Part shown: positions 3,001 to 62,175 of the stretch, piece after piece
How positions within the stretch are numbered: the stretch's first letter is position 1
How the letters are laid out: each line of letters opens with the position of its first letter
Virus record (IMG/VR): IMGVR_UViG_3300012344_000018
Span: 32,238 to 96,237 of that record
DNA: 64,000 nt
From: a virus
Lineage: Duplodnaviria > Caudoviricetes
Direction: 5' to 3' (one strand)
Program-made: the position numbers and the translations under genes
Notes under the pieces: generated by a model
Seen by the model: only the letters and a program-made list of their open reading frames with translations
Databases searched by the model: none
Told to the model about the DNA's origin: nothing

Positions 3001-6000
3001 TAGCATCAGCAAAAATCTTATCTAGTTCTTTATTAAAACTTTCTACTCGTTTCATTGCTTGCATTTCTTTAGCTCTAATATCAGCCATTACATTTCTAGT
3101 AATAACTTGCACAAAAGCATTACCAGAATCTTGTAAATCACCAACCCAAGCATCAAACCAACTAGTAGAATGAAAGCCATCAAATACACTAATAATATTA
3201 TTTTGAATCATTGGATTATCACTAAGTTTAGCAAGATAATCAGTAGCAAATAATGTTTCAGCTTGTTCAAGATTAGAACTATTAATAAGAGACTTAATGT
3301 TATCTTGAATCTTCTGAATATAATTAATAGTATTATCTGATTGTTTAGTCTTATCAACTTTAACAGAAACAATATCTCCATATTTAGTAATTAAAGCTCT
3401 AGCGTCAAGAAGAGTTTTTAAGAAACGTCTTTGTTCCATAGGATTGTTTCTAATATAATTAATAGTTTCAGCTTCAACTACAGAATGATAATGACCATTC
3501 TCATCAGCAAAAAATTGATTCAAATTAGAATTAACTTGTTCAACTTTAGTTCTAACATAATCACTAATTGCACCATAAACTTTTTCTTCTTCATTACTAA
3601 ATTGAACTTTCTTACCTTCAAATCCTTTTTCCCCTAATTTACGAACTTGACGTCTAGCTTCATAATCACCTTCATTTGCTCTACGAGACATATCTCTATA
3701 AGCGTCAATACTATAATCAAGAATAGTAGCATATTTCTTCTCATTAGTATCAAGAATAATATTTTTATTCTCAACTTTAGGAACTTCTTTAACTACTACA
3801 GTATTTGGAGCAACTATTATTCCTAAATCACCAAGACGACTAATTTCATTTGGAGAATATTTTCTAAATACAAAATTTGTATCTATAGTTCCATCATCTC
3901 CAGTTTCAGCATCTATATAATTAGAAACTATATGTTGTTGATGTCCAAATCTATAATTTACCATTCTACTTAGATAAATGTTTTGTATAGTAAATTCCTT
4001 ACCATTAGATGTAGGATATTTAGCAACTATATCTTGAATAGCTGCTCTAGCTGCACCTTCATTATATTTATCAGGATGATTTAAATCAAATACTCTTTCA
4101 TTCTTTAGTTTCTTATATTTAATTCCAAGATTGTATTTAGAAGCAAGTTCATTTATATCTTCTAATTCAAGATTTTCACCATTATTCTTTTCAATCTCAT
4201 TGATATAATCAAGATAAAAAGCTTCAGGTTTAAACTTATTATTTTCTTTAGTAAGACTTATTCCTGAAGTTTCATTTTCATCAAGTTTATTAATAGGATA
4301 AGCATAAACAGTTGTACCTATAGATTGAATCTTATAAAGAATACTTCTATATTCTTTATCAGCAGTTTTCTTAGTTTTAATTTCTACATAACTATTGCTT
4401 CTAAAATCATTAGGAATTTGTCTAGTAGAAGTGTCAGTTATAACACCATATTTAATAGCAAGTCTTCTATCTTCTTTAAGTTTATTCAATCTATCTTTAA
4501 AATCTTTTATTTCTTTAGAAATACGTTTTCTTTCTTCTTCATCAGTTTCATTATTAATCTCACCTTGAAGCTCAGAAATAGTATTTTCTAAATCAGTAGT
4601 ATCAGATAAATCAAATCTAAGAAGTTCTCTACTTTTTCTATTTTTATTAAGTTCATTAACTAGACGTTTACCTACTTTAGTTTTAGTTTCTGTTTTATGA
4701 TAAATAAATGAAGCATCACTATGTGAACGAATATAATCTTCAGCAACACCGTAGTCACTTACTTTATTATTAAACTCTTCAAGTATTTGTTTAACTAAAC
4801 TAACTCCACCGAAAAGACTATTATCTTTAAGACTATCATTAGTAATAAACTTATTAATAGCATTTCTTCTCATTTTAAAATTTTCAACTACAAAAGCATA
4901 TTTAATCATATCTATTGCAGCAAGTTTAATAAGAGGATTATCACTATTAATTGCTTGGTCAAACATCATATATGCAGTTTCAATATCAACAGTATCATCT
5001 TTAAAACTAATAGTTTGTTTAGATTGACCAGTTTGTTGAGCTTCATATTGATTAAACAAATTTACTTTGCAAAGACCAAATATACCAGCATCTTCAGTAT
5101 TAACTTGAAGCCAAGCTACTTTTTGAGCTGGAGTAAGTTTAGCAAACGTTTCAATTTCTTTTTGTGTAGGATAAACAATATCATTGACTGCAAACTTAAT
5201 GTCACTAGAAGCGTTATAACCAAATATTCTTTGACGTTCAGCTATTTCATCACTATCATTGTTTAAACTAAACTGAGCAAAAGTACCATCTTGATTAAAA
5301 ATAGGATTAACAGTCATTCTTATAGCAGGAGTATTATTATATATTCCACTAAGAACATATTGTTGAAAATCAGAATATTCTTTCTCATTTATTTGTCTAG
5401 TATTATCACTAAAAGAATCTTCAAGACTATAAATTATATCTTTAAACCAATTAGCTTGAGTATCAAAAAGCATACTATTAATACTAGTAGAAGTAGAAGT
5501 AGCATATTTTAAGAAACAATGAAGCGAAGGATAAGCTGAATCTGAATCAATACTTTGAGTCATATAATGATATAAATCATAAGATTTAATACCATTGTTA
5601 TCAACAATAAGCCCAGGATATATAGATTCAAGAAATGAAATAGAACTACCATCTTCTTTAGTAACATCAAGAACACTATGTTGTCTAGCATTATCTCCAT
5701 TTACAATAGTTTCAATATCTCTAAAAACTTTATTAGTTGCAAATATAGTTTGTTTAGCTCCAAATCTATCAGGATTACAAACTCTTGCTAAACTACTAAT
5801 ACCTTGAGCAAGTTTATTAATATCATTATAAGCAAAGAGAATATTAAGGTCAAATAACAATCTTTCTACGGGGGGGTTAGTTTGACCATCTTCTTCATTA
5901 ATTCTTGCAGCTAAATCATCGTAGTCAAGAATAATTCTATTATTATCTGTAAGACTATAATTAGTTTTAAGTACAGTATTAATTTTATCTATAGCTTTTT

Positions 6001-9000
6001 GTACACTATCTTCTTCAGTTACACCTATATTAAGTTCTATAGCTAGTTTCTTAATAGCGTTCTCAATAGGTTTAGAAGTTTCTTCTACATAAATAGATTT
6101 ATTAGCATTATATTCATTAACAATTCTAGTAATAGCAGGCTGCATAATAAATGCACAAGTAGTATCATAATTACTACCAATATCAGGAAGAGTTTTATAT
6201 ACAGCAAAAGTAAAATCATTTACGTTAGGTATAGCACCTTCCTTTACTGCATCAAGAATATGAGCAGTAGTTTGAGAAGTATAAGCAGTAAGAATACGTC
6301 CATCTACATTTTTATTGTCTTCAGACCAACCTATTCTAGTATGAGTAATAGTACATTTACTATTACCTAAATCTTTAACGTTATCTTTACCGAATCTATT
6401 AATAAGTTCTTTAAGTTGTTTATTGTCTTTATAATGATAATTAATTTGAATAGTATTATCAGAATTAATAGTTGGTCTAACTGTGTTACATACTGACACA
6501 AATGTATCACGAGTGACACTAAATGCTTTAAGTTTAGCACCACTCATAACATCTTCCTGATAATCAGCTTGCTCAAGAAAATCATAAGGACTTCTAGCTT
6601 TACGAATTTCTTTAACTACAGGATTGATAACTTTATCACGTGCAGAAATAATATCATCAAAATTAGAACGAGAAAGATTCTCTTCAAGAGATTCATCAGA
6701 TTGAAGAATATCAATCATATCATCAAGAAGTCTATTGTTACGAGCATTACGAGTATTAGCATTTTCAACATTTTGACTAAGATACTCATCATAAGTCATA
6801 AGACCAAGCTTCTTAGCAGCATTATTAAATTTATCAATTCTAGCTTGAAGAATAGCTTTTGCTTTATCAGACTTAAAGTTTTTCTTATTAATATATTCGT
6901 TACTAATAGAATCAACCATATCTTCATGAATAGATATAAAGTTATTATCTGCTTCATCAAGATTGGATTTATTCTCACGAATATAATCAGCTACAAACTG
7001 AAGTTGTTTAAGATAACTATCTTTAGTAAGTTTACCAGTCTTTTCATTCTTTACAGCTTGAGATTCAAATGCAGTATGAGCATCCTTTACAAGTTGTTTT
7101 GTTTCATCAGAAAGAGCTTCATAAGCTTCAGATTCTTCAGCAGAAAGTTCTTTACGAGACTTTTCAAATTGTTCATCTATTTCTTTATTAAGTTGTTCAA
7201 AAGCAGCTTTAACTGATTTATCTTTAATCTTATCAGCTTTTTCAAGATGTCTATTTACATAGTTAGCATAATCGTAAATATCAAGAGTTTCAGAATAAGA
7301 CTGTTTTCTAATATTACCACGCTTATCTACATAACTACTATATTGAATACCATATACAGAGTCAATATCAAAGTCAGAACCAGTCTGTGAAACCCAATCA
7401 TCAGGAACTACAATAGTTGAACCTTGAGCATCATCAAGGAAACCAACTACTTTCATAACACAAACAGATTGCTTACCTTCAGTAGGAATACGATAACCAA
7501 TAAGAGTATCAAGACTAGCATCCTGAAGCTGTTTCAGAAGTCCTCCTATAATATTTCCGTTTTCATCTCTAATTTCATCAGCTTCTTTATAACTTCCATC
7601 TTCATTCTTAGCAAAACCAAAATTAGACTTAGGAAGCATAATTTCAATATATCTCTTACCATTTGGATGATATTTAAGTTCTTTGTTTATTGTACTACCT
7701 TTAACAATATGTTGTTTATCAGCTTTAAAACCTACATTAGTAATCTGAGCAGCATGGAAACCGGGAAGTTTTTGACGAGTAATATTTCTATTAAATACAG
7801 ACTGACTAACACTTTCAAGTTTACTAATAGCATTACTAAGAATCATTGGCATATTAGGATTTGGTCTTCCTGTCATAGGATTAACAACTTCATTTTCAAT
7901 AAGAGTTACATAATCCATCATATTACTATCAAGACCAAGACGCATACATTCTTCTTTAAGCTTAGAGAAGAACATCTTATAATCTATACCACTAATAGTA
8001 CCATCGTCATTAAATTTAATATTGCCATTTTCATCTCTTGGAATATTAATTTCATCAGCTAAAGTATTAAAACTATCTTTAATATTAGCCGAGTAAAGTC
8101 TAAAGAACTCTTGTTTCTTAGCATAAAGAGGACTTAAAGGACTAATATTATCGATAATCTTTTTCATTATCTGAATACCAGCTTTATTCTCAGCATCCAT
8201 ATGTTGTGGAGTTTCTTGCTGAGTATAAAGATGATTATAATCATAATATTCAGCATAAGCTTGAGCGTGAGCATTAAAGTCATCAATATGTTCTTGAGTA
8301 ACTTCACCAGTTTTAGAATCAAATATTTCAAGCACTCTAGCTTTACCAGCTTTACTTGTCTCTTCAGTATTAAGTTGGTCAATATTATTATCTTTCATAA
8401 GATTATAAACTTGTTCAAGTTGAGTACCTCTAATAAATCTAGGAACAAGAACAAATTCAGCATTCTTAATTTGACGAGGAACAAATTTCTTACTTATAGG
8501 GTCAAAGTATTGGTCATAATAAAAATTCTTCTGAACTTGAACAAATTCTTTAATATCTCCACTACTAAGAGGTTCGTCATTTTGAATCTTTTCAATAAGA
8601 GGTAAATACTTAGTTAATTGTCCACGACCAGCTACACGACGAACCCATTCTTCAAATGTAATATAAGACTGAGCATCGTTTACAGTAGTACCAGTGAAAC
8701 CACCACCACGCTTAATACTTCTATCTTTATTTAATTCTGGAGTACCATCAGATTTATATTGAATAGGTCCGCCCATCAAATCTCTAGCTTGTTCAATAGT
8801 AAGACCTGCGTGTTTAACAAGGTCTTTTACTAAAGTACCATCTGCTCCTTCAGTATGTCCATCAGGAAATTGTTTTATTACTTTACATTCTTCAGAGGTT
8901 CTAATTGTATTCTTAATAGTTATACCTCTAAACTTAGTCATTTGTTGAACATCAATAGGATTCTTAAAACTAGCAAAACGTTTTTGAATTTCGCCATTAT

Positions 9001-12000
9001 TAAGAGGAGAACCTACTACAGCTAAAGATTCACTAGCGTAATCGCTAGCGTAATCACAAAAACCATAAGGTACACCACTAGCTTGACTTTCCTTACTACG
9101 TTTCAAGAAAGTCTGAGTATCTTTATAAAACTTAGTATCTCCTTCAAATAAATCATTAAATGAAATATAAGCAAGTCTATTATTAAGAACAAAATCAGCT
9201 ACGTTTTGGTCATTAATAAGACCAGCAACATCAAGACCCTTATAAGTATCAAATTTTTCAACTTGTTGATTAACATAATTAGTTATAAACTTACTAATCA
9301 TTTGAGTAACTTTATCATTTTGTTCTTTAGATAGATTAACTTGTACTTTGTCGCCATCAGAAGTAAAAGGAATATAAGCATCAATATCCCCCCCGTAGAG
9401 AGAACTGAATAGTTCATTCATTAAATTTTGAGCTACATTTGTAGTCGTACCATCATTATTAGTTATACTAAATCTATCATCTTTAAATAGACGACCAGTA
9501 AAAGTAAGACCTTTAGTTTTATCATTATATTCAACAAAATGTTTATGTCCTTTACCTACTTCATATACAGCGTAAGCTTTACGAGCAGATTCTTCATCAA
9601 ATCCCCAACCTTCTTTAAATTTAGGTTCTCCAAATTTATGGTCTGGACTTTCACCTTCTTGCCAACGTTGAATCCTACCATTAGCATCAGTAACAAACCA
9701 TTGATTAATATTATGAGCCATATCAGTAAGTTCTTGAATAAAAACATTACGATATTGTTGGAAAAGAGGATGATTAATATTAATCTGTTTATCTATAATA
9801 ACATCTCCTATCTTACCAGTACGATTAGCTTCACGTCTAATATTAGATACAAGACTTTGACGAACATCAGAACCAAATTCATTTCCTATATGATAAGGTT
9901 TAGCATTTGTAATATAAACATTATTATCAGCATCAAATTCAGCTTTACCTTGAAGTACATATCTTTCTTGATTTCCTAATTCATCTGTATATGTATAACC
10001 AATAGTAATATTATCTCCATTACGATAACTTCCTTTATGATTAGTATCTTTAAGAATTTGATAGTCTCTAATCTTACGTCTATTAATTCTAGTAGCACGT
10101 AAATCTCTAATCATTTGATTATAATCTTCACGAGATTCAACTTTGATAAATTGTTTAAGTTGAGCCTCAGTAGGAGACTTTTCTACTTTAGGTATATCAG
10201 TCAAAACTTTATTAATAGCTGCTTCAACTTCTGCATTATTTTCTATAGTAAATAAATCTCCATAATTAGCATCATGATAAGCATATCTAGCTGCTCTAAC
10301 AATAAAATTCTTAGGAGCATCAGAAGGAATGCGCATAAAATAATTAGCTAGATTAATATCATATTTATTATCACTATCAAAATCTTTCTCAGTATTAAAG
10401 AAATTAGCAAAACCAGTATAAACATAATCTCCTTTACTCATTCCTGAATAAAGAACATTTTCACCTGTATTAGGATTACCAGCACCATTAAACAAACTAA
10501 TATTAAGAAGTTGTCTAGCGTAAGCAGTTGGAGCATATTTATCTCCTATTTTCTTAAATAATCCATAAACAATAATCTTATCATTGGCATTTCTTTGTTC
10601 AAGAAGAATATTACTAAGATTATATTGATTGCCTTGGAACTTATAATTACCATATTGAATTAAAGCTTCAGGAGAAAGTTTACCTTCAGCATCAGTACTC
10701 ATTTCAGTTCCATTAAGAGCATTCATAAGATTAGTAAGCATAGAACTGTTTATAATGTCAGAACTTTGATTACCAAGAACATTACGAGAATTAAATTGAA
10801 GAGCAATACTAGAATATGGTTCAAGAAGTCCAGCAAGTTCATTAGCATTAGCTATACTTTGTTGACTAATAATACTTTCGTGAGGAATAACTAATTTAGC
10901 ATTAGGGTCTTCTTCAAGAGCAAATCTATATTTACGTTTAGCATCTTCATTTTCTTCTCTATATTGTTGATTAAGAGTTGCAGCTTTGGCTGTGCTTGCT
11001 AAATTATTTATAAGAATATTAGCATTTGCTATAACACTAACTTTACCATTAATTTTATTAGTTCTAAGGAATGAACCAATAGAATTTTTATCCATATCAG
11101 GATAATATGTATGAAGAGCTTGAGATAAATTAGATTCTATACCACTAAAAGCTTCTTGCATACGAATATCGTTGTTAGTCTTAAGTCCGCTATTATAACG
11201 AGTTATATATTTGTTTACAATATCTATAGCTTCCGTAGCATGATTCTCAAGATTAGTAAGAGAAGTGTGCTTAATATTATTTTGGAAACTAAATCTTAAT
11301 GATTGAGTACGACTAGCTTCTTTATTAGAAGATATAGCATGGACTTCTTTGTTACCTTCAACTCTAGTTTCAGTTTTAGGCATAATACTTCTAATAAATT
11401 GACGTCTAAAAGAATAAGCAAAATCTTTATTAGATTTAAGTGTATCTACAAGTTTAATAAGACCTGCCATTTCTTTATTATTATTAGCTATATTTTCAAT
11501 AGACTTAATAAAAGAAGGAACATTATCTCTACTACATTGAGAAATAATTGTAGCAATAGCCTTTTTACCATCAATAAAATCTAATGTACCAAGAGGATTA
11601 CTTCTATCATAAGAATATTTTCCATCAACTTTAGCTGTAGAAGTAAGTTTAGGAATAGTAAACATGATAAGTCTAACACTATCATCAATACCATTCATAA
11701 AATTACTACCCATACCACTATTATCATCCCATCTAGCAGTAGTAGTATCTACATCATATTCTTTATTAGTACCATCTACAAAGTCTTGATTATCATCATT
11801 GACAAATGTGTCTTCTGTTAAACCTTCTTCGTCAAATCTTTCATCAACAGAATCATCAGATTTAGTTCTAAGAAGACCAAGACGACTATCTCCAGCATAT
11901 ATTGCATTAAAGAATTTAGCTTTGTTAGTAAGCATTTCTTTAAACATAGCAAGAGTGTTTCTATCTTCAATAGGAAGAGTTTGAAAATCTTTATCTATAG

Positions 12001-12544
12001 AAAGAAAATCTTCATTACTTTTATAGCTAAGAAGTTGATTTGTGGCTCTAAGTGTATTTTCTTTTGTACTAGGAACATTTCTAACTTTCATAAGTTTTGT
12101 AGCTAATTGTTTAGCAATAAACTTGATAGTTCTATTTGCATAATAATTAGCTCTATCATCTTTATGGTCAGAATCTTTTCCTTTAAGAACATCAGATATA
12201 TAGAAAGTCAAAATATTATTAGCAGCAACTCTATTAGCTGCAACTTTAGCTTGACTATTAGCATAACCAAATCTCTGAATAGTATCAGCATATTTAGACT
12301 TACTAGTTTGATAAGCAACATTAAAATGTTTAGATTCATAGAAATCCATAGCATCTTTTGCTGCATCATCAGTTTTACGATAATCATCAAATTCTTTAGT
12401 AAATCCACTATCTGTATTAGGATTATAAACTAGAGCTGTAATAGTGTTAAACTTTACATTATTAACTCCACACATTTCTTTGAGACGGGTTCCAGTCTCA
12501 GTAGCAGCAAATCTTTTTGCATCTACATTACAACTACCATTCAT
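1..12544 (-). CDS. Giant virion RNA polymerase (crAss-like ejected RNAP subunit), >4,180 aa, 3' end beyond the window
   Basis: Missing from the ORF track because there is no stop in the window. ATG at 12544 (MNGSCNVDAKRF...). The same frame reads IGYRIPTEGKQSVCVMKVVGFLDDAQGSTIVVPDDWVSQTGSDFDIDSVY, with the catalytic DFDID at 7361-7375, and is still open at position 2 (...FERFRNFLYSP). I spot-checked the frame rather than every codon. Confidence 0.93.
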   Translation of the reverse strand, partial: MNGSCNVDAKRFAATETGTRLKEMCGVNNVKFNTITALVYNPNTDSGFTKEFDDYRKTDDAAKDAMDFYESKHFNVAYQTSKSKYADTIQRFGYANSQAKVAANRVAANNILTFYISDVLKGKDSDHKDDRANYYANRTIKFIAKQLATKLMKVRNVPSTKENTLRATNQLLSYKSNEDFLSIDKDFQTLPIEDRNTLAMFKEMLTNKAKFFNAIYAGDSRLGLLRTKSDDSVDERFDEEGLTEDTFVNDDNQDFVDGTNKEYDVDTTTARWDDNSGMGSNFMNGIDDSVRLIMFTIPKLTSTAKVDGKYSYDRSNPLGTLDFIDGKKAIATIISQCSRDNVPSFIKSIENIANNNKEMAGLIKLVDTLKSNKDFAYSFRRQFIRSIMPKTETRVEGNKEVHAISSNKEASRTQSLRFSFQNNIKHTSLTNLENHATEAIDIVNKYITRYNSGLKTNNDIRMQEAFSGIESNLSQALHTYYPDMDKNSIGSFLRTNKINGKVSVIANANILINNLASTAKAATLNQQYREENEDAKRKYRFALEEDPNAKLVIPHESIISQQSIANANELAGLLEPYSSIALQFNSRNVLGNQSSDIINSSMLTNLMNALNGTEMSTDAEGKLSPEALIQYGNYKFQGNQYNLSNILLEQRNANDKIIVYGLFKKIGDKYAPTAYARQLLNISLFNGAGNPNTGENVLYSGMSKGDYVYTGFANFFNTEKDFDSDNKYDINLANYFMRIPSDAPKNFIVRAARYAYHDANYGDLFTIENNAEVEAAINKVLTDIPKVEKSPTEAQLKQFIKVESREDYNQMIRDLRATRINRRKIRDYQILKDTNHKGSYRNGDNITIGYTYTDELGNQERYVLQGKAEFDADNNVYITNAKPYHIGNEFGSDVRQSLVSNIRREANRTGKIGDVIIDKQININHPLFQQYRNVFIQELTDMAHNINQWFVTDANGRIQRWQEGESPDHKFGEPKFKEGWGFDEESARKAYAVYEVGKGHKHFVEYNDKTKGLTFTGRLFKDDRFSITNNDGTTTNVAQNLMNELFSSLYGGDIDAYIPFTSDGDKVQVNLSKEQNDKVTQMISKFITNYVNQQVEKFDTYKGLDVAGLINDQNVADFVLNNRLAYISFNDLFEGDTKFYKDTQTFLKRSKESQASGVPYGFCDYASDYASESLAVVGSPLNNGEIQKRFASFKNPIDVQQMTKFRGITIKNTIRTSEECKVIKQFPDGHTEGADGTLVKDLVKHAGLTIEQARDLMGGPIQYKSDGTPELNKDRSIKRGGGFTGTTVNDAQSYITFEEWVRRVAGRGQLTKYLPLIEKIQNDEPLSSGDIKEFVQVQKNFYYDQYFDPISKKFVPRQIKNAEFVLVPRFIRGTQLEQVYNLMKDNNIDQLNTEETSKAGKARVLEIFDSKTGEVTQEHIDDFNAHAQAYAEYYDYNHLYTQQETPQHMDAENKAGIQIMKKIIDNISPLSPLYAKKQEFFRLYSANIKDSFNTLADEINIPRDENGNIKFNDDGTISGIDYKMFFSKLKEECMRLGLDSNMMDYVTLIENEVVNPMTGRPNPNMPMILSNAISKLESVSQSVFNRNITRQKLPGFHAAQITNVGFKADKQHIVKGSTINKELKYHPNGKRYIEIMLPKSNFGFAKNEDGSYKEADEIRDENGNIIGGLLKQLQDASLDTLIGYRIPTEGKQSVCVMKVVGFLDDAQGSTIVVPDDWVSQTGSDFDIDSVYGIQYSSYVDKRGNIRKQSYSETLDIYDYANYVNRHLEKADKIKDKSVKAAFEQLNKEIDEQFEKSRKELSAEESEAYEALSDETKQLVKDAHTAFESQAVKNEKTGKLTKDSYLKQLQFVADYIRENKSNLDEADNNFISIHEDMVDSISNEYINKKNFKSDKAKAILQARIDKFNNAAKKLGLMTYDEYLSQNVENANTRNARNNRLLDDMIDILQSDESLEENLSRSNFDDIISARDKVINPVVKEIRKARSPYDFLEQADYQEDVMSGAKLKAFSVTRDTFVSVCNTVRPTINSDNTIQINYHYKDNKQLKELINRFGKDNVKDLGNSKCTITHTRIGWSEDNKNVDGRILTAYTSQTTAHILDAVKEGAIPNVNDFTFAVYKTLPDIGSNYDTTCAFIMQPAITRIVNEYNANKSIYVEETSKPIENAIKKLAIELNIGVTEEDSVQKAIDKINTVLKTNYSLTDNNRIILDYDDLAARINEEDGQTNPPVERLLFDLNILFAYNDINKLAQGISSLARVCNPDRFGAKQTIFATNKVFRDIETIVNGDNARQHSVLDVTKEDGSSISFLESIYPGLIVDNNGIKSYDLYHYMTQSIDSDSAYPSLHCFLKYATSTSTSINSMLFDTQANWFKDIIYSLEDSFSDNTRQINEKEYSDFQQYVLSGIYNNTPAIRMTVNPIFNQDGTFAQFSLNNDSDEIAERQRIFGYNASSDIKFAVNDIVYPTQKEIETFAKLTPAQKVAWLQVNTEDAGIFGLCKVNLFNQYEAQQTGQSKQTISFKDDTVDIETAYMMFDQAINSDNPLIKLAAIDMIKYAFVVENFKMRRNAINKFITNDSLKDNSLFGGVSLVKQILEEFNNKVSDYGVAEDYIRSHSDASFIYHKTETKTKVGKRLVNELNKNRKSRELLRFDLSDTTDLENTISELQGEINNETDEEERKRISKEIKDFKDRLNKLKEDRRLAIKYGVITDTSTRQIPNDFRSNSYVEIKTKKTADKEYRSILYKIQSIGTTVYAYPINKLDENETSGISLTKENNKFKPEAFYLDYINEIEKNNGENLELEDINELASKYNLGIKYKKLKNERVFDLNHPDKYNEGAARAAIQDIVAKYPTSNGKEFTIQNIYLSRMVNYRFGHQQHIVSNYIDAETGDDGTIDTNFVFRKYSPNEISRLGDLGIIVAPNTVVVKEVPKVENKNIILDTNEKKYATILDYSIDAYRDMSRRANEGDYEARRQVRKLGEKGFEGKKVQFSNEEEKVYGAISDYVRTKVEQVNSNLNQFFADENGHYHSVVEAETINYIRNNPMEQRRFLKTLLDARALITKYGDIVSVKVDKTKQSDNTINYIQKIQDNIKSLINSSNLEQAETLFATDYLAKLSDNPMIQNNIISVFDGFHSTSWFDAWVGDLQDSGNAFVQVITRNVMADIRAKEMQAMKRVESFNKELDKIFADARRDGVNLSFDDIIDKDGRSIRPYNEKFESDYKAIAKELREAKANRIDNPKDYILAQHKYDKFLLDHVNRRFVDDYYKELYDNDEEMIAHHMPIFEEYTKLRAQIAKINEGRINGVLDPADESKLKDLQSKILELRSTIDFNTYEEKESFVIGYPGARVNDKGEVIEIVDEERYRKARTNNYADCKALDNYLAKINEIRNKYNDNKVKKGFEEQLNKNLDIIETAEARDAYGRLRVPVSQLEANEDYKRAKAWLAANAKWTIDPDIQKEIHEAYKSLGYKGNRSEVFKAVTKKLVKEGKVTYDEYGRIDGSAYSDEYQQKIKEEAERKYDINKFGTCSDRILISNAPEDNTVYPTEIYRRMSSNGIPNEEYQKIVKQVNDILRPYYDVSTKHIETSQMTEEDLNKLYDAYQPLFAGIKKTVDGTNGKSIGWFIRNYVDLNSYNETAFNLERERAKAKGDKYYKAWERVNMMGIPKVDDKFQVVTDSEGNIVYDESKPRVPNRYLYSALKVDMDKYLKNKSGKKAAALRQEMEAKTKALNTIGKYLETVNTPYYEAELKKQRAKGDKEFKEWYERNHVYNPFTHLFEPTLIWRKTQVIPRYDNGTWTAGYSQTELEPKGAYKNANYREGLGNIDNYKKSTDTTYDSNKVLNSHQQRLLDYLNSTLRSLAKTESAKRYIGHGYMPMMSKGREHNARWWGSQFLEFLGYSDKLQNGRDPFYHIDYADDRTIDMPMLMKELRSKDSINIENIRKTKPNRTSYTDEEEYNKAMADYNARIEEAESKNKAIHEALMNRDYRTVISNFITQAAHFNAIQDNKYMLFYGKEMLDRMEVYEKNLGWSNLKRDGQRGAKDEINYLKQKDTRLQGQYENWIRRLIYNQFKESNANYTKAASVMQAFTSAKFMMLNITGGIGNITVGESSIAGEYIAKDFFDKSDYLKGKEMWVNAVPSFLRGLYNDKSTTLADAICKEFNVVDFDQLAGISDGNKLDAGTAFERFRNFLYSP

Positions 12545-12572
12545 AGCTTTAATTTTATTATTATGTTAAACG

Positions 12573-12609
12573 AAAAAGTTCTAGAGGCTTTTAAAATGTC
12601 CTCTAGAAC
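12573..12609 (-). terminator. Intrinsic terminator-like hairpin between the 2396-aa cargo gene and the vRNAP gene
   Basis: GTTCTAGAGG/CCTCTAGAAC stem followed by a T-run on the minus strand. Confidence 0.55.
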
Positions 12610-12633
12610 CATGAATTGTTATTAATGAATAAT

Positions 12634-15600
12634 CTATCGACAAGTGATAGAAACTTCTCCTTGCTCTATCAGTGAAGCAAATTTGGCTTGTTCTGACAAT
12701 GGAAGACTTGTAATAGAATCGAAAACTGTTGAATATGATGAAATACTTCTATCAGGAACAGAAGAATAATCTATATCTTCATCTTCATCAAATTCATCTT
12801 CTGTAACTTCATCAACATTATCATCTATAAGTCCATTATCTTCTGACTTATCTTCATCTTCTTCTGATTGAAGTGTTTCTTTAGGAATATCTTCAGTTTC
12901 ACTTTCTTGTTGTGGTACAACATTATCAATTTTTGTTTGTTCAGTTTCATCTTCTTTAAAATTTAAAGTTCCTTCTTGACTTTTACTTTTAGTTTTTTTC
13001 TCATTACTAAATGCTTTAGCAAGAGTATTAAACTCTTTAGCTCTAAGAGATTCATCAGCTATATCAAATCCAAATATATTATTGATAAACTCCATAATCC
13101 TTTGCCATATAGATTTAGTACCTTTATTAAGATGCTCACCTTCTACATGAACAGAATTAAGATATTGAATAAGACCTTCAGAAGTAAGACTTTCTACTAT
13201 AAATTCTTCAATAGCAGTATCTTCTTTATTCTTATCAAGAAGCTTATCAAACTTATATTCAGCTATATGATTAATAAATTCTTTAGCATGATTTTCATCT
13301 TTGAAAATATTATCATGTCTAGCATTTACTTCATTGAATTTACCAGCAGCTAAATCAAGAATATCAGCATCTATAGCTTGAGTAAAATCATCATAAATAG
13401 TTTTAAGTTGTCGTTTAGCTTTAGCTTTATTACGACTAGCATTAATTTGTTTATGAAGATTTTCATGAATTAAAACTCTAGCAGCACGATTACCACCACC
13501 AAGATTAGAATTAGAAGCTATATTAAGCCAATCTTTACCTACAACAATACTATTTGTTTTAGGGTCAAAATAAGCTACAACTCCAGGGTCACCATTTTCT
13601 TTAGTTTTTTCTGCTTGAATTGCTTCATCATCAAAAGTAATATTTTCAGGAAACAAACCATCAAGAACAGTTGAATATTTATGACCTTTAACTTTATTTT
13701 TAAGAGCTTCATAATTTTGTGTTGCTTGGTCTGACATTAATCGTTCTGCAATAGCTGCACCTTTAGAAACAATATCTTTATCGTTAAGTATATTAGTAAT
13801 ATCTGCTTGAAGAGTATCAGTAGGAGTAGATTCATCAAGTTCTTCTACGGGGGGGTTCTCTTGCTCTAGTTTATCATGTATCTCTATATTCAAAGTTTGA
13901 TTACCACCTTGTTTTCTAATAGCAACTCTTCTATAATTAGAACTATTCTCTTGAGCTAAATCTACTCTAAGAAGATTATTACCAATAAGAAATCCATTAT
14001 AAGAACTAGTGTTTATATTAAAAGCATTATTTCCATTATAAGCAGAAATATTAATATGAAATCCTTCATTATCATAATGAATAAATTTATTCTTAATAGG
14101 CATACTTCTATTATTATCAGCAGCTACAAGAGTAGAATTTATATTAACTCTAGTATTTTCTCTAATATCATCTTCGAGTAAAAGTCTAGCTTCAGCAAAT
14201 GCTACATTTCTTTTACCTTCAGAAGTTTCAACTTTAATCATATTAGGAACATTACCTAACTTATTCTTAGCAAATAAAGTATATTTATTTCCATTATCAC
14301 AAATAAGTTGAACATTTCCATAATTATCATAATAAACTCTTATACCAGCAAGAATGCCATTTTTATCAAAAGAATAAATATTAGCAATTAAATCTCTAAC
14401 GTCATTCCAATCGTTAATATCTTTTATATTGTCAAGTCTTTCTTGAACTTGACCTATAACAGATTCAACTAAAGTTTCAAGAACTTGATTTCTAGGTATT
14501 TCAGTTTCTCTACCATTATGAATATATGTCATTGGTCTAAGAGTAATAGGATAAGCTGCAACATAATCAATAGTACCATTTGTATTAGGAAGACAAAGAT
14601 ATGTTTGATTATTTCTAGAACTTCCAGTAGTACCATAAGTTTGATTACCTAACCCAGATATTAAAACATAACCATTAGTACCTACACCAATATAAGCTTC
14701 TGTTCCAGCACTCAAAGCTGTTGCAATAGGAGCTGCAACTTCTGCTGTATTTCTAGTAGTTCCATCTGTCTTAAGTTCTTTATCTTTAGCTCTTATTACT
14801 TCACCTTTAGACATCATACCTACAGTAATTCTAAACTCACCATCAGCAATCATATTAGCAGCAGATATTTCAGCTCTAAGTTTATTATAATAATTATCTA
14901 TAGAACTACCTAAATCTTCATGAAATATATCAGTATCGTCTTTAAATTCATAATTATATCTCCATATTTTAGCAATACCTTCTAAAGCTTTATCATAAGT
15001 AGAACCTTGTTCTTGATTTATTTTTAGAATACCAGCTTTAACTGCTTGTTGTATTCTAGGATGAGTTGCAAAAGCAGTAGCTAATTGTTTACGTTCTTCT
15101 TTTGTAAGTTTATCGAAAGCCGCTCTATAAACAATATCATCGAGAGTAGCAAAATCTCCTTCACGACTAAGAACTTGTTTAAAGAAAGTTTTAGCAGCTC
15201 CATCATTCTCTTCTCTAGTTAAATCTAATTCATGTAACCAACAATCAGCAACTCTAGTATTTCTACCAGTAATGGGATTTACAGCAGATAATGCTTGCCA
15301 ACCTATAGTAACACCATTATGTTTATAAAGAATAACTTGAGTGGATTTATTACCTTTATTACCTATTTCTACTTCAAGTTCATCTCCAGATTGAACTAAA
15401 GATAATTCTTTTTCAGCAGCTTTTATACCATCTTCGTCAAGAACTTCAGAAAGATTATTGATATTAATCTGATTAAGATAATTACCAGTAATTCTTTCTA
15501 TATTTCTTTGATAAGTAGTTTTATGACTATCTCTTAAATATCCAGCTCTATCTACTTGATTTTCATCAGTAAGAACAAATAATTGTTTTGCTTCATCAGT

Positions 15601-25900: not shown

Positions 25901-26452
25901 TTGTCTTTGTTATATCCTCTCATTACAGCTTGAGCAGGACTTATTCCACCAAGAATAGGTTGAGCTGAATATATACGTAAAGTTGCCCTTACGTTGAGCA
26001 ACTTCACCACCTTCAGCTTCGATTTCATTACCGCCAACATTAATACCTATGCCAGTTTGACCAGTTTCATTTATATCCTCATGAGAACCCCCCCGTAGAA
26101 GAAATGTGTTGTTTCCAATCTTCCTAGCACTACCACCATCAGTAATAGCAATATTTCTACTACCAAGTCTTTTAGTACCACCTATACGATATTTAAGATT
26201 ATAATCTTTATCGTCGTAACTAGTTTCAGCATTAGCATAGTTATTAAGTGTACTAGCTAATTGATTTTGATTACTAATATCAAGTTGTTGTTGAGCAAGT
26301 CTTTGTTGCTCTTCTAAAGCACGTCTTTGAGCTTTAGCTTGTTGACTACTAGTAATAAGACCTCCAACAAAATTAATTGCAGCAGGAATAAGAGAACCCC
26401 AAAATGCTTGAGGTCTCTTATTAGTTTGTTGTCTTTTTAATCGATATACCAT
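22963..26452 (-). CDS. Modular cargo protein (C1-like), split by a frameshift near 25981 (ORFs 25910-26452 and 22963-26040)
   Basis: The N-terminal ORF reads ...EAEGGEVAQRKGN, then the protein-like sequence continues in another frame as TLRIYSAQPILGGISPAQAVM. It lies directly after the muzzle gene and has recurring K-Y-x-x-G-G motifs. Confidence 0.7.
24340..24770 (-). repeat. Four degenerate intragenic repeats (LISQL/LIRQL-x-S..K), two preceded by TQSMVD
   Basis: LISQLPSEKDK, LIRQLPSNRDNK, KLISQLQSEDK and KLISQLSTKKD in the translation. Confidence 0.7.
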
Positions 26453-35660: not shown

Positions 35661-35762
35661 CATTTTAGTAAAACCATTATTAGCCTTAGCGTTACTAACG
35701 GCATTATTAGCATTAAGGTAAAGAAGACTAATTCGAGACTCATTGTCAGTCTGACTACTATT
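35661..35762 (-). repeat. DGR template repeat (TR)
   Basis: 102-bp ungapped match to 36013-36114. Of 27 mismatches, 26 are at TR adenines. Rich in AAT/AGT triplets. Confidence 0.95.
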
Positions 35763-35994
35763 AGTAATTCAATTAATTGTTTACGTAGGAACAACATTCC
35801 CAATAGCAATTAAATGTACTTGCCCAACTAATCGGTTTTTTGGTGATTATCCTATTACATTTTGTATATTTAGAACTATCTCAATTTTAAACTATAACAC
35901 CGTTTATAATCGTTCCATTACAAATCTCATTTTATAGATTGACACGTTCAATACAATATGTAACTTAATATCGTTTAATCATACAATTATCAAT

Positions 35995-40224: not shown

Positions 40225-40287
40225 AACTTTAGTATTAGAACCCCCACGTAGAAGGACTGTAGATGTTCTTCTACGGGCGGGCTTTAT

Positions 40288-44162: not shown

Positions 44163-44732
44163 TTATTCTCCTTCTACAAAAACTTTACCATTATCTTTAT
44201 TGGCTTGATAATTATCATAAGCTTCTTTATTTTCTTTATCTAGAGTTAAACTTACAACATTATCTGTTATAACTCCATCAGCTTTAACTTGACCATCAGG
44301 AGTAATTACATATTTAAATGAAGTATCATTATCTTTAATTCCATTACTTCTATTATAATTACTTATTTGTTTATCTACATAATCGATAAATAATTTAGCT
44401 TTTTCATTATTTCCTACAGAATAAGCAACACAAGCAGATTGAAATATATTCCAACAATTAAAAACAACACTGCCATTACCTTTACATCCATAGGAACAAT
44501 CATCTAAAATAGCTTTACCTCCATCAGCTACAAGATTTAGTAATCGTCTATATATTGGAACATAAGTAATCGGAATAGTAAGATAAACTACTTCAGTATC
44601 AACAGAAGTTCCTTCATCATAACTATCATTCTCGACATAAACTTCATTATACTGAGTTTGATTAGTATCAAGAGAAGAATTATCCAGTCCTTCTACGGGG
44701 GGGGTTTCTTGACTAACATTATCTTGAGACAT
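44163..44732 (-). CDS. Putative tail hub / structural protein (189 aa)
   Basis: Cys-containing LDDCSYGC..FNCWNIFQSA segment; synteny. Confidence 0.45.
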   Translation of the reverse strand: MSQDNVSQETPPVEGLDNSSLDTNQTQYNEVYVENDSYDEGTSVDTEVVYLTIPITYVPIYRRLLNLVADGGKAILDDCSYGCKGNGSVVFNCWNIFQSACVAYSVGNNEKAKLFIDYVDKQISNYNRSNGIKDNDTSFKYVITPDGQVKADGVITDNVVSLTLDKENKEAYDNYQANKDNGKVFVEGE

Positions 44733-45620: not shown

Positions 45621-45657
45621 AAAAGTAATACAGCTCCCCCGTAGAAGAGCTGCATTA
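45621..45657 (-). terminator. Intrinsic terminator with a motif variant in its loop
   Basis: TAATGCAGCTC/GAGCTGTATTA stem, loop TTCTACGGGG, then CTTTT. Confidence 0.7.
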
Positions 45658-50094: not shown

Positions 50095-51444
50095 CTAGAA
50101 GAGCAAGTCTTCTACGTTTACTTTACCATTATTAGCAGCAGCTGGTTTAGTAATTACAACAGTTTTACGACCTTCATTTTCTTTAGCCTTTAGCTTTAGA
50201 GTTTTAACTTGTTGTTCTCTAACAGCCATATCAATAAGGTCTTTATAACTTCCACCTGTAAAAGTCAGCCATGCAGAAATAAGTTGTTCATTTAAATCAT
50301 CATCAGGAGTTCTAGCAGCTAAATCTCTTTGATAAGCAGTAGTAATATTTCCATCTTTATCTTCATCTTGACGATATAGATAATTAAAGAAATCATCAAT
50401 AGTAGTAGTAACCTTTTGACCATTTACTTCACGTACAAATGACTTAGGTAATTGATATTCACCAACTTTACCTTCAGCAAGTTTATTATGTACATTAGTC
50501 CAATAAGCAGTAGTTTGCTCTTCTTGTTCTTTACGTTGAGCTTCAGCTTGACGAGCATATTCTTCATTACGTTTCTTATCTGCGTTTTGAAGATTTTCAA
50601 GTTGAGCTTTAGCTTCATCATAAAGACCACCACTATCTTTAAGATACTTAATGTAATTATCATTAAGAGTAGTATTACCAAACTCTTGAGCAGCAGCTTT
50701 AATTATAGCAATTTGTTGAGCTTCATTATCTTGTTCTACTTTAATTCCACTTCTATCAGGAAGTTCACCAAAACCACGAGGAGAACCATTAACAGCTAGA
50801 TAATTAGCAAATTGAGCAAGAATAGGATTATCTGTAAATACTTTATTAACAGCAGCTTGTTGAAGTTCATTAGAACGAAGAGAAATGACATTCTCAATAT
50901 AAGATTTAACACCAGCAGCATCGTTAGTAAATTCTACTGGATTTCCTTTCTCATCAACAATTTCTTCACCAATAGCTTTTTGAATAGCATCTAAAGAAAG
51001 TTCATCAGCTCCTTCTTCAGTACCTTTTTCTTTATTATTTACATCAAAACCTTTAAGCCATTCATCAACATCTTTAGCTTCTTTAAATACTTTACCATCA
51101 GGGTCAAGAACATTACCATCTTTATCAACAGTATAAGTCTTACCGTCTAGTTCAATATTCGTTCCTTCCTCTAGCCCCCCCGTAGAAGGGTTTGTATTGT
51201 TGTTTTCTTTACCACCTTTATTAGACTCTTCCTTTGGAGGTTCATTAGCTGGAGGTTCATTAGCTGGAGGTTCATTTTCATTACCTTTTTCTCCACTAAC
51301 GTGTGGAGGATTGCTAGGATTACCAGCAGGAGGAGGAGTAGTACTACCACCTCCATTTCCACCATTACCTTCAAAATCAATCTCAGCTGGACCTAAAAGT
51401 CTTTTGTGCTGACGAACACCTAAAGTATTACGAAATACAAACAT
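50095..51444 (-). CDS. Putative scaffolding protein (449 aa)
   Basis: Acidic, Pro-rich disordered N-terminus (PPANE x2) and coiled coil; between portal and MCP. Confidence 0.6.
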   Translation of the reverse strand: MFVFRNTLGVRQHKRLLGPAEIDFEGNGGNGGGSTTPPPAGNPSNPPHVSGEKGNENEPPANEPPANEPPKEESNKGGKENNNTNPSTGGLEEGTNIELDGKTYTVDKDGNVLDPDGKVFKEAKDVDEWLKGFDVNNKEKGTEEGADELSLDAIQKAIGEEIVDEKGNPVEFTNDAAGVKSYIENVISLRSNELQQAAVNKVFTDNPILAQFANYLAVNGSPRGFGELPDRSGIKVEQDNEAQQIAIIKAAAQEFGNTTLNDNYIKYLKDSGGLYDEAKAQLENLQNADKKRNEEYARQAEAQRKEQEEQTTAYWTNVHNKLAEGKVGEYQLPKSFVREVNGQKVTTTIDDFFNYLYRQDEDKDGNITTAYQRDLAARTPDDDLNEQLISAWLTFTGGSYKDLIDMAVREQQVKTLKLKAKENEGRKTVVITKPAAANNGKVNVEDLLF

Positions 51445-56611: not shown

Positions 56612-56968
56612 TTACTTAATAATAGAAATGATAAGGAGTAGAATACTGCCAATAGCAGCACCTACTCCAATATTACGTTGTCTCTTTATTTTCTTGCATG
56701 ACCTATCCAATAATAAATATCTTTGTCTAGCTTGTTCTGCAAGTACACTATCATTTCTAACAATTTGTCGAAGACTATTATTAATATCTCTTTCATAATC
56801 TAATTGAATTAGTTTAGCATTAGCTTTACGTAAGTCATTAATAGCAACTTTAACTGAATCACTATCTAACCCCCCCGTAGGAAGACTGCTAGATTTACTT
56901 GATGAGTTGATAGAACAACTTAACAGTACTATCATTATCAAGAACTTCAACTTCGATAACTTTTGCAT
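56612..56968 (-). CDS. Spanin-like membrane/lipoprotein (118 aa)
   Basis: Signal peptide with LLSC, coiled coil and C-terminal transmembrane segment; overlaps the upstream TM gene in the lysis cluster. Confidence 0.45.
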   Translation of the reverse strand: MQKLSKLKFLIMIVLLSCSINSSSKSSSLPTGGLDSDSVKVAINDLRKANAKLIQLDYERDINNSLRQIVRNDSVLAEQARQRYLLLDRSCKKIKRQRNIGVGAAIGSILLLIISIIK

Positions 56969-60189: not shown

Positions 60190-60292
60190 AATATAAGTTT
60201 TATAATGATTACCGTTTGGAGCTTCGGCTGCATAAGCAGCCTCATCTCCTCACTGATTAGTATTAGAACCCCCCCGTAGAAAGGTTGAAGTA

Positions 60293-60823
60293 TTAATCTT
60301 CTTTAGTCTTATCTTCTACAAAGTAACAATCAACTATAGGTTTAGCATTATCATTAATTGCAGCATGAATAGCATTATTAGGAATAATCTTAAACTCAAC
60401 AAAATATGTAGGTTGTTTTATATGAATACATTGAGAAGAAACTTTAGGGTCACTAACAGCAAGTCTAGTAATAAAACCAGGACTAAGACTATTATATTTA
60501 GCAGTTACATGATAACCTAAAGCCAAATCACTACCAGCAACATTCAACACATCACCAACTTTAATTTCATTAATAAAGTCATTATCTTTACCGTGCTTAA
60601 TCATAATAGCAACACCATTAACAGTAGAGTTTTTATTTTGCTTAATATTATTTATTAAAAGCATAGGAGATTCTTTAATAAGAATAGCAACTAGACTATA
60701 ATAAGGAGCTAGATTTACATTAGACACTAAAGACTGAAGATAATTAACATCAATCTCACTACGCATAGTTGGAAGATTATAAGTATAATCTTTACCATCA
60801 AAATTTACTTTTAAATGTTCCAT
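60293..60823 (-). CDS. Hypothetical protein (176 aa), first gene of the minus-strand operon
   Basis: Likely start MEHLKV at 60823. Confidence 0.65.
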   Translation of the reverse strand: MEHLKVNFDGKDYTYNLPTMRSEIDVNYLQSLVSNVNLAPYYSLVAILIKESPMLLINNIKQNKNSTVNGVAIMIKHGKDNDFINEIKVGDVLNVAGSDLALGYHVTAKYNSLSPGFITRLAVSDPKVSSQCIHIKQPTYFVEFKIIPNNAIHAAINDNAKPIVDCYFVEDKTKED

Positions 60824-60939
60824 AAAATCAATATTTAAATTAATAACTAGATTAATAACATTATCTTTAAAAGTTATGTAATATTTCAAAAACAGTTCTG
60901 CTCGAACTAATGATAATAGTGAAGCTGAACTTGATGCTG

Positions 60940-61049: not shown

Positions 61050-61054
61050 CAGAC

Positions 61055-61457: not shown

Positions 61458-61461
61458 AAAT

Positions 61462-61497: not shown

Positions 61498-62175
61498 CAT
61501 TTCTAATAGTTTACAAACTAAATATACTAATGATAATATTAATGAAACTAAAGATACATATAATAATAAGAATAGAACTCAATTCATAAGTCCTTCTACG
61601 GGGCGGGTAAATAGACATCTAGTACTTCAAGATTCGTCTAGAACTTCTAATGCTTATAATGACAAAGATAGAACTTATATTATCGATGATAAAGGAGATA
61701 TAAATAATATTAGTAAGACTAATAAAGCTGATGGTAAAATAATAACGAAAGATATTATTTTAAATATAAATATAAATAAATTACTGGTGATTATATAACT
61801 AGTAAAGATGATAATGATAGTAATAATAGTAGTAAAAGAGAAGGAGAAAATGATATTGAATATGATTGTGAAGAACTTTATAATAGAGAGAATGTAAATG
61901 ATAATAAAGAAAGTGTTGATAACAATAATTATACTAATAGTTATAAATATAATACAGATTGTAAAGTTGAAGATGATACAAAATAATATTGAATAAAAGA
62001 AATAATGAAGATGAAGATTATAGCATAAAAGATTGTTATGATGAAAATAGCGAAGATAGTGAAGATGATAGTATATGTGTATAGTATATTATATAAATGT
62101 AAGGGGGAGGGTATGTAGTTAGACCCCCACCCGAGAATGGACGTATTGAAGTCCCCCGTACTCAAACTTAAACTT

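Follow-up and report, generated by a model that had tools for sequence, protein, structure and literature searches.

A G-rich asymmetric sequence element maintained at orthologous positions in Intestiviridae phage genomes

What maintains a short G-rich word at dispersed positions on both strands of a phage genome, inside genes as well as between them? In the window, that is, the whole stretch of 64,000 nt analysed here, the 11-mer CTACGGGGGGG is found in 12 exact copies and four copies with one mismatch, against the 0.02 expected from dinucleotide shuffles of the window (mean 0.02, maximum 1). All 16 matches lie exactly where the initial annotation had placed them, and the peptides that it had read across them (PPV four times, TGG three times, PPRR, YGG and RGG) were all reproduced. 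The sites, with their state in related genomes, are the following:

5866..5876, plus strand: exact copy, antisense to the virion-RNAP ORF (2..12544, minus strand), reading N-P-P-V-E; orthologous copy in G001, G004, cr8_1, G005 and cr271_1.
9388..9398, minus strand: exact copy, sense in the virion-RNAP ORF, reading L-Y-G-G in a highly variable, indel-rich loop of the protein; 7 of 8 relatives, p-crAssphage and cr107_1 among them, retain the ortholog at protein identities of 31-51%.
13845..13855, plus strand: exact copy, antisense in a 2396-aa ORF (12634..19824, minus strand), reading N-P-P-V-E; orthologous in G004, cr271_1, cr3_1 and p-crAssphage, the proteins of the last three being only 22-26% identical.
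16198..16208, minus strand: exact copy, sense in the same 2396-aa ORF, reading S-T-G-G; orthologous in G004 and G005.
23910..23920, plus strand: exact copy, antisense in ORF 22963..26040 (minus strand), reading N-P-P-V-G; orthologous in G001 (with a 24-nt insertion directly 5'), G004 and G005.
26088..26098, minus strand: exact copy, sense in ORF 25910..26452 (minus strand), reading L-R-G-G; this ORF is the N-terminal part of the gene of ORF 22963..26040, severed by a 2-nt deletion ~100 nt downstream of the site; conserved as far as G005, at a flank identity of ~71%.
33367..33377, plus strand: exact copy, antisense in ORF 33141..33827 (minus strand), reading Y-P-P-R-R; G001 and G004 share the site, but cr8_1, G005 and genomes further away have none at the aligned position.
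33873..33883, minus strand: exact intergenic copy lying 46 nt before the start of ORF 33141..33827; decayed in the G001 and G004 alignments, mostly by G-to-A transitions; a copy is retained in the corresponding spacer of cr8_1.
40241..40281, both strands: intergenic inverted pair between two co-directional genes, 40241-40251 (minus) CTACGTGGGGG and 40271-40281 (plus) CTACGGGCGGG, able to pair as an imperfect hairpin.
44693..44704, plus strand: copy whose run is extended to G8 (44697-44704), close to the 5' end of ORF 44163..44732 (minus strand) and antisense to it, reading T-P-P-V-E; G7 in G001, with indels 3' of the site.
45634..45644, minus strand: variant CTACGGGGGAG, intergenic, a perfect 12-bp hairpin with a UACG loop and then a U-rich stretch, which looks like a terminator; identical sequence in G001 and G004.
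51175..51185, minus strand: exact copy, sense in ORF 50095..51444 (minus strand), reading S-T-G-G; orthologous in G001, G004, G005 and cr271_1, decayed to CTACGGAGAAG in cr8_1.
56870..56880, minus strand: exact copy, sense in ORF 56612..56968 (minus strand), reading P-T-G-G; orthologous in five relatives, G005 keeping the nucleotides in a different reading frame.
60269..60279, minus strand: exact intergenic copy lying 14 nt past the stop of ORF 60293..60889 (minus strand), with the tail TTCTAATACTAA; a G6 version in G001 and G004, with a 7-nt deletion alongside.
61596..61606, plus strand: variant CTACGGGGCGG, intergenic, in a 1.4-kb non-coding stretch at a divergent gene switch; the interrupted run is identical letter for letter in G001 and G004.

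Over the 96-kb genome the motif reaches 26 copies, 13 on the plus and 13 on the minus strand, and nearly all G runs of at least 6 are motif copies. Fifteen of the 26 lie within ORFs, essential genes among them, half of the copies are antisense, and of the intergenic copies only some precede gene starts; this does not fit promoters of phage RNA polymerases (T7 class or crAss virion RNAP), which are expected in sense orientation ahead of transcription units. The rarity of CCC and GGG codons was confirmed by codon counts in the ORFs: CCC accounts for 21 of 767 proline codons and GGG for 40 of 1672 glycine codons, and 14 of those 21 and 17 of those 40 fall within the motif. The 11-mer itself is real but proved to be only the core of an element of about 18-22 nt, composed of a 5' pyrimidine tract that varies between C and T only, TAC, a run of G5-7 and a semi-conserved 3' tail. 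The partly conserved flank described at 40231 and 60259 is likewise real, being the tail TTCTAATACTAA common to copies 40241 and 60269; in p-crAssphage and Rudgehvirus the semi-conserved tail lies about one helical turn from TAC. The element is asymmetric and dispersed every 2-8 kb along the genome, whereas a parS-like site, one of the roles first considered, is expected to be palindromic and clustered near the origin or partition locus.

That selection acts on the nucleic acid itself, rather than on the protein, is strongly supported, because four observations converge. When synonymous codons were permuted gene by gene, with intergenic DNA unchanged (a codon-preserving shuffle that had been proposed with the initial annotation), the in-gene copies were lost and the YTACG7 count, 18 in the real sequence, averaged 3.7 (maximum 6), a residue that approximates the number of pure-run copies outside ORFs. 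In 60 orthologous in-gene pairs the core TACGGGGG is 93-100% identical, compared with ~50% for its flanks, and the motif is found at orthologous residues despite protein identities of only 22-47%. Finally, two sites, one in the cr107_1 primase and one in G005, keep the same nucleotides in a shifted reading frame. The same four observations strongly support the idea of a genome-wide cis-acting site system. In-gene copies are in frame and add no length, and lost sites decayed through several G-to-A transitions. Purifying selection retains the copies against a strong AT mutation bias, in variable loops and spacers.

Mapping across related crAss-like genomes found the motif in all ten Intestiviridae examined, including the prototype crAssphage and the cultured Rudgehvirus jaberico, at orthologous positions inside and outside genes and in lineage-specific "dialects". 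It is absent from crAss001, phi14:2, cr127_1, cr56_1, cr10_1, cr118_1 and FpV4, and is missing in the tested representatives of Steigviridae, Crevaviridae and Suoliviridae. A host word of the Chi, KOPS or uptake type, as had been envisaged, is expected to be enriched in host DNA; in 81 Bacteroidales genomes, YTACGGGGGG was not enriched, its count being at or below that of the reversed control (0-7 per genome in most, 16-18 in two, one of these a tandem array), and host-signal versions are therefore unsupported. In the genomes of 185,579 species, only scattered single occurrences of the 10-mer were present among the matches listed. The motif is a family-wide signal of Intestiviridae and not a host signal, and no description of it or its function was found in the literature searched.

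The layout of the copies fits a process that reads one strand. Each strand carries one copy per ~7 kb, and spacing per strand is more even than random (CV 0.32-0.50, p<=0.005 in 13 of 16 genome-strand sets), whereas pooled sites are less regular (CV 0.52-0.82). The strand split is ~1:1 in most relatives (11:6 in cr271_1), and sense and antisense copies are about equally frequent in every genome examined. Orientation alternates above chance (26/31 in cr107_1, p<0.0002; p=0.004 in G004; p=0.011 in G005), with no single switch as in replication-skewed words, so the orientation skew of Chi or KOPS with replication direction is not seen. The dialect tracks orientation to transcription: sense copies have pure G6-7 runs, whereas in antisense and intergenic copies the runs are often shortened or interrupted. 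Among the copies of G005 there are two different 3' tails, and in cr8_1 a C lies inside the G run in 15 of 27 copies.

Our tentative preference, held with a confidence somewhat short of even, is that the element may be an Intestiviridae-specific cis-acting signal whose G-rich strand is read by a phage enzyme of DNA metabolism. Such a candidate reader would be phage-encoded and would meet the DNA from either direction. Its activity at the motif might be a programmed single-strand nick, which we regard as rather unlikely; a primer start or a loading site for a helicase or primosome could also be imagined, with still less confidence, and the same low confidence attaches to a Chi-like site at which a translocating helicase-nuclease would be switched or halted, marking phage DNA as self. 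Homologous primases occur in phages that are devoid of the motif, which argues against primase as the reader, and the RepL-like gene beside the intergenic inverted pair does not track the dialect. Three further points weigh against a DNA signal: an orientation-dependent dialect is not predicted by a purely DNA-level reading, the degenerate pyrimidine tract is most simply explained through G-U pairing in RNA, and folding of the G strand is not seen at the DNA level.

Nick-associated motifs are described for T5, phiKMV-like phages, tf and Rembedalsseter (PMC3517423; PMC11780129). They resemble the present motif in being short, far above chance, strand-specific and family-conserved despite low nucleotide similarity, and in occurring inside and outside coding sequences, in any frame, at ~13-30 per genome. 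The conservation of nick motifs within a family, inside and outside genes, is a precedent (PMC11780129; PMC3517423). Those motifs lie on one strand only and cluster toward one genome end; unlike them, this motif is equally distributed on both strands (13 and 13), alternating and evenly spaced, and the element is longer (at least 14 nt versus 9) with an added G5-7 run. For the phages analysed here, the literature searched yielded no long-read study with strand-specific drops in coverage. The motif also resembles the Chi sites of RecBCD and AddAB, which are G-rich, orientation-specific, read on one strand and present about once per 4-7 kb in genes and spacers. Primase and Chi sites span 3-8 nt, and Chi (5-8 nt) is over-represented in the host chromosome since its reader is a host enzyme. 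Unlike Chi, this word of at least 14 nt is not enriched in the 81 Bacteroidales genomes and would need a phage-encoded reader; among the scanned proteins of this genome, no RecB- or AddB-type nuclease was identified, only a Dda/RecD-like SF1 helicase and a Gam-like protein.

The DUS of Neisseria and the USS of Pasteurellaceae are comparable 10-12-nt words, hundreds-fold over expectation on both strands, found within genes and also in inverted pairs with a second role as terminators. They mark the chromosome of the competent bacterium, whose own uptake machinery reads them; here, by contrast, the word marks the phage and is not enriched in genomes of the host order. REP/BIME elements are similar in that a GC-rich segment adjoins a conserved GTAG/CTAC tetranucleotide, that inverted pairs lie in spacers and that hairpins may stabilise RNA. 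REPs, however, are extragenic imperfect palindromes of 20-40 nt, whereas more than half of the present copies lie in genes and the element is non-palindromic with no DNA fold; a REP/RAYT type was rejected on the genic location and the missing DNA fold, and no transposase-like or RAYT-like protein was noticed among ~20 scanned proteins of the genome.

The main rival explanation, which we hold to be unlikely although with an appreciable share of probability, is that the G strand, once transcribed, folds into a small hairpin, its pyrimidine tract joined to its G run by G-C and G-U pairs around a C(UACG)G tetraloop of the UNCG class. Hairpins of this kind might serve as pause or termination sites for transcription, as barriers to 3' exonucleases or as binding sites for a phage protein, and antisense-oriented copies would act on antisense transcripts. 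The 16S rRNA helix CUCC[UACG]GGAG is a UNCG-tetraloop RNA hairpin that has the same C(UACG)G loop, short stem, pyrimidine 5' arm and G-rich 3' arm; the resemblance is one of hairpin design only, with no evidence of homology or of a link to the ribosome. RNAalifold returned the same stem and UACG loop in 9 of 9 genomes tested. Folded as RNA, 28-nt sites average -6.9 kcal/mol on the G strand; the averages are -1.9 for their C strand and -1.3 for 28-mers of random sequence. Treated as DNA, the G strand does not fold. The C/T-restricted tract can pair with G throughout, and the dependence of the dialect on transcriptional orientation points the same way. Some intergenic copies lie in strong terminator-like hairpins, as at 45634 (RNA -17.5 kcal/mol, z -6.4; DNA -5.7, z -4.2). 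Folding is uneven, however: 7 of the 16 window sites reach z <= -1.8 against composition-matched shuffles, and the other 9 fold no better than shuffles. A stable hairpin with a U tract is present at 45634 and at the pair 40241/40271, while in-gene copies have weak stems and no U tract, as most copies lack one. In cr8_1 the hairpin is weak (-3.2 kcal/mol), 15 of 27 copies having a C in the run. No covariation beyond the invariant core was seen in any of nine genomes plus Rudgehvirus, the only stem changes being one-sided C to U opposite an invariant G. Moreover, relative to the only genes known, about half of the copies run antisense, we know of no antisense transcription for these phages, and even spacing and alternation per strand have no obvious RNA rationale.

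It is distinctly doubtful that the copies are bound as duplex DNA by an architectural, partition or packaging protein of the phage that would organise or condense the genome, with loops anchored at convergent sites, for example. Phage specificity, lineage dialects, even distribution independent of gene position, and an asymmetric element of 18-22 bp with its tail about one helical turn from TAC (p-crAssphage, Rudgehvirus) are all compatible with this. A duplex binder, however, has no need of regularity that is greater per strand than pooled and ought to ignore orientation to transcription, and base-specific recognition of a duplex seldom leaves five or six neighbouring positions free to be C or T.

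It is very improbable that the copies do nothing for the phage and are merely the trace of a selfish process, be it a mobile mini-element, biased gene conversion or linkers for recombination where modules meet. Indels often lie directly beside sites, intergenic copies form close inverted pairs, which recur in every relative examined, and homology blocks occasionally end no more than 20 nt from a site, as the swapped virion-RNAP module does on its left side (genome position 30863); but of 52 block ends just 4 are close to a site where 1.7 would be expected, an enrichment that is not significant. The sites are orthologous and fixed in position family-wide, without turnover, in-gene copies add no length, no transposase or target duplication was seen, and insertions should not be evenly spaced. 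An artefact of sequencing or assembly, whether from poly-G ends of reads or from chimeric junctions, was a danger named from the start and has practically no probability left: the cr8_1 record terminates exactly on a copy, so the repeat can break assemblies, but the same orthologous sites recur in independent assemblies from several studies and platforms, with conserved flanks, fixed run length and copies in frame within long ORFs, and it was rejected on this cross-genome conservation.

Returning to a signal read on the G-rich strand by a phage enzyme, its boldest form, to which we give little credence, is that of a phage-private, strand-specific self-marking word, evenly spaced on both strands, a code of a new kind. 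An enzyme tracking from any entry point would soon meet the word. If this were true, Intestiviridae would treat their own DNA differently from that of the host, which lacks the word, and the dialects would be compatibility barriers between co-infecting lineages.

The virus record to which the window (bases 32238-96237) belongs comprises 96,237 bp at 29% G+C, and its closest named record is that of crAss-like phage cr8_1 (Intestiviridae, Obtuvirinae), with 72-79% nucleotide identity. The copies of the word CTACGGGGGGG reported by the initial annotation were reproduced in number and coordinates, the window holding 12 exact and 4 one-mismatch copies compared to an expectation of 0.02 in dinucleotide shuffles. 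The whole genome (G000) carries 26 copies of the motif, 13 per strand, and these contain all 18 of its G/C runs of at least 6 nt and 20 of the 24 of at least 5. Alignment of the copies extends the element to about (C)AGTCCTTC-TAC-GGGGGGG-TT(CT/AG), in which a pyrimidine tract, TAC, a G run and a tail follow one another on the strand called here the G strand (its complement being the C strand). Two copies carry G8 in place of G7 (window 44697-44704 and genome 22644-22651, the latter outside the window); relatives have G7 or G6 at both sites, and the G8 copies are possibly slippage variants.

Eight more Intestiviridae were compared: G001, G004 and G005 (IMG/VR), cr271_1, cr3_1, cr107_1, the prototype crAssphage BK010471 and the cultured Rudgehvirus jaberico. 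The mapping across related Crassvirales that had been proposed found a pyrimidine tract followed by TA(C/T) and G4-7 in every Intestiviridae genome examined, with 15-31 copies each and a version (dialect) proper to each lineage. It was found in none of seven other phages, namely crAss001, phi14:2 (Steigviridae), cr127_1 (Crevaviridae), cr56_1, cr10_1, cr118_1 (Suoliviridae) and FpV4.

Dialects of the motif in Intestiviridae
G000, G001 and G004: YCTTCTACG7
cr8_1: CCTTTTACGGGG(G/C)GGCTAGAG
G005: CTCTTCTACG5-7 with two different tails
cr271_1: TCTTCTACGGGGGAGCT
cr3_1: TTCCTCTACGGGGGA
p-crAssphage: CCATCCTC(T/C)ACGGGG(G/A)GT
cr107_1: CTCCTTTA(T/C)GGGGGAA
Rudgehvirus: CTCCTYTACAGGGG

The cr127_1 genome (MT774393.1) holds ten copies of another GC-rich word of 25-38 nt, GGCCACAAGGGCGAGAGGTGTTCCG (e.g. 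at 11357, 28872 and 42233), on both strands, some of them forming inverted pairs; private words scattered through the genome may be more frequent among Crassvirales. In the cr8_1 record (NC_055877.1), copies of the motif lie at 45-55, 110-120 and 92658-92668, such that its last bases are a motif copy and its first base lies 44 nt ahead of another; these record-end copies occupy a spacer with an inverted pair, upstream of a RepL-like gene. Since the record terminates exactly on a copy, the repeat probably broke the assembly.

Outside one swapped module, the DNA of G000, G001 and G004 is about 80% identical. The module consists of the virion-RNAP gene and the adjoining giant gene (window 2..19824), whose proteins are 84-90% identical to those of G004, whereas identity to G001 is no more than 26-32%. 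Additionally, a 2-nt deletion with respect to G001 (window ~25980-25985) yields the overlapping ORFs 25910..26452 and 22963..26040 (-), which G001 and cr8_1 keep as one gene of 1055-1183 aa; the break lies about 100 nt downstream of a motif copy, outside the G run, and either a true frameshift or an error of sequencing could explain it.

The initial annotation suggested that selection acts on the nucleic acid rather than on the protein, and several results agree with this. Its translations of the in-gene copies were all correct, and the rarity of the codons concerned was borne out: GGG accounts for 40 of 1672 Gly codons, 17 of the 40 in the motif, and CCC for 21 of 767 Pro codons, 14 of the 21 in the motif. 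The codon-preserving shuffle, performed as within-gene permutation of synonymous codons, revealed enrichment, YTACG7 falling from 18 copies to 3.7 on average, a residue close to the number of pure-run copies outside ORFs, where the DNA was left unshuffled. Relatives with proteins of 22-47% identity carry counterparts of G000 copies at the same residue and with orientation unchanged; the primase site is kept in 8/8 genomes compared and the sense site of the virion RNAP (ORF 2..12544, minus strand) in 7/8 (sense meaning that the G run is on the coding strand), and the antisense site of the 2396-aa protein (ORF 12634..19824, minus strand) is also found in cr271_1, cr3_1 and p-crAssphage. In 60 pairs of orthologous sites, TACGGGGG is 93-100% identical to its G000 counterpart, compared to about 50% for the flanks, and in primase and RNAP the motif forms an L-Y-G-G island within indel-bearing variable loops. 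The cr107_1 primase and one G005 site carry the same nucleotides in another reading frame. At lost sites the G run has eroded through several G-to-A transitions, which shows the mutation pressure withstood by the surviving ones.

Sense and antisense copies are about equally numerous in every genome, and spacing along each strand is more even than random (CV 0.32-0.50, p<=0.005 in 13 of the 16 genome-strand sets; 0.46 and 0.35 in G000). Orientation alternates above chance, in G000 at 18/26 (p=0.08), in cr107_1 at 26/31 (p<0.0002), and likewise in G004 (p=0.004) and G005 (p=0.011); close inverted pairs are frequent among intergenic copies (e.g. 40241/40271). The G run is pure in 15/15 in-gene copies of G000 compared to 3/11 intergenic ones. 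In relatives the pure run belongs to sense copies, whereas those in antisense or intergenic positions often have a shorter or C-interrupted run, and G005 has separate tails for the two classes. A role as recombination linker at mosaic boundaries was not convincing, 4 of 52 homology-block ends lying near sites against 1.7 expected.

One copy is located in a 1.4-kb stretch without a long ORF at a divergent gene switch (window 60890-62288), which also contains a strong terminator-like hairpin (~61462-61497) and, at 62100-62165, three clustered G5/C5 runs, among them a degenerate motif-like GAGTACGGGGGAC (minus strand); Rfam gave nothing significant there. The only Rfam match in the window is an RT-17 RNA (35528-35618, minus strand; 43 bits, above the gathering score) adjoining the ORF 34346..35809 (minus strand), and a link of the motif to an RNA guide or other ncRNA was rejected accordingly. 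RT-17 RNA motifs accompany diversity-generating retroelements.

The motif is tentatively read as a one-strand signal for a phage DNA-metabolism enzyme arriving from either side. It is the reading that best fits the regular spacing along each strand, the balanced use of the two strands, a placement independent of genes, the lack of the motif in host DNA and the co-evolving dialects. The putative enzyme would recognise one strand, approached from either direction, and the site might serve nicking, priming or loading, or a Chi-like switch. The closest published precedent is a motif associated with nicks and conserved among tf-like Pseudomonas phages, although it is confined to one strand (PMC11780129) and the Intestiviridae motif is found on both. 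On the other hand, a Chi- or KOPS-like signal of the host, also put forward initially, or an uptake signal, was rejected, since host-order DNA shows no enrichment of the word: in 81 Bacteroidales genomes it occurs no more often than its reversed control, and a survey of prokaryotes with one genome for each species gave, among the matches listed, scattered single ones only. The papers searched for the motif's sequence, for crAss promoters and motifs and for nicks, and the study of the crAssphage phage-plasmid, contained no description of it.

It is unlikely that an RNA hairpin is the functional form, although it would account for the C/T degeneracy of the tract and the dependence of the dialect on transcription direction; the antisense half of the copies and the even spacing are left unexplained. 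As RNA, the G strand pairs the pyrimidine tract with the G run (including G-U pairs) in a short stem capped by the loop C(UACG)G, recovered by RNAalifold in 9/9 genomes. The mean folding energy of the G strand is -6.9 kcal/mol, whereas the C strand averages -1.9 and random 28-mers -1.3. When compared with composition-matched shuffles, however, z <= -1.8 is attained at no more than 7 of the 16 window sites. With DNA parameters 15/16 sites are unfolded (MFE 0 to -1.6 kcal/mol, z about 0), so a single-stranded-DNA hairpin was rejected. A hairpin is thus plausible in RNA only, and unproven, because DNA folding is absent save at the intergenic copy at 45634, the cr8_1 RNA fold is weak and no covarying stem extension was found in four registers across nine genomes plus Rudgehvirus. 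A duplex architectural site appears improbable, the footprint of a selfish process highly improbable, and an artefact can practically be dismissed.

Candidate readers of the proposed one-strand signal are encoded in the replication arm.

Replication-arm genes
Split Dda/RecD-like helicase, family-B-type polymerase neighbourhood, SNF2-like helicase
RecT, primase, ATP-dependent ligase
Gam-like end protector, DUF932 protein, dUTPase

Primase homologues are also present in motif-free phages. Three unannotated replication-module proteins (genome 14847-15668, 15762-16730 and 18437-18925) are found in almost every genome with the motif, while BLAST gave no match to them in genomes without it; Pfam and PHROGs matched 0/3, and neither an atlas look-up for two of them nor a homologue search for gene 18437-18925 gave a functional lead. 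The RepL-like initiator is an unlikely reader because G001 and G004 share the G000 dialect yet have no BLAST match to its protein. In the Dda/RecD-like SF1 helicase gene (genome 5786-8494, outside the window), about 1.3 kb holding a 334-aa ORF separates an N-terminal ORF (5786-6298) from a C-terminal one (7655-8494). This stretch may represent an intron that encodes a homing endonuclease, or an insertion of another kind; the cr8_1 gene is intact.

Intestiviridae include the most abundant human-gut virus, and to our knowledge their replication, recombination and DNA packaging are largely unknown. The motif, usable as a simple marker of the family, probably accounts for assembly breaks in its genomes. 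The sites are short, countable and found in the cultured Rudgehvirus jaberico, and are thus open to native long-read mapping, pull-down and recoding; cultured crAss002 and Carjivirus communis presumably carry them as well (for crAss002, the genome examined is that of its uncultured congener cr107_1). The cultured hosts are Bacteroides cellulosilyticus WH2 for Rudgehvirus jaberico, B. xylanisolvens for crAss002 and Phocaeicola for Carjivirus communis. The price of the motif is that rare codons and slippery G7 runs are forced into essential genes. A signal fixed in place through the history of the family at such cost must serve an important step in Intestiviridae biology, on which the motif offers a concrete handle.
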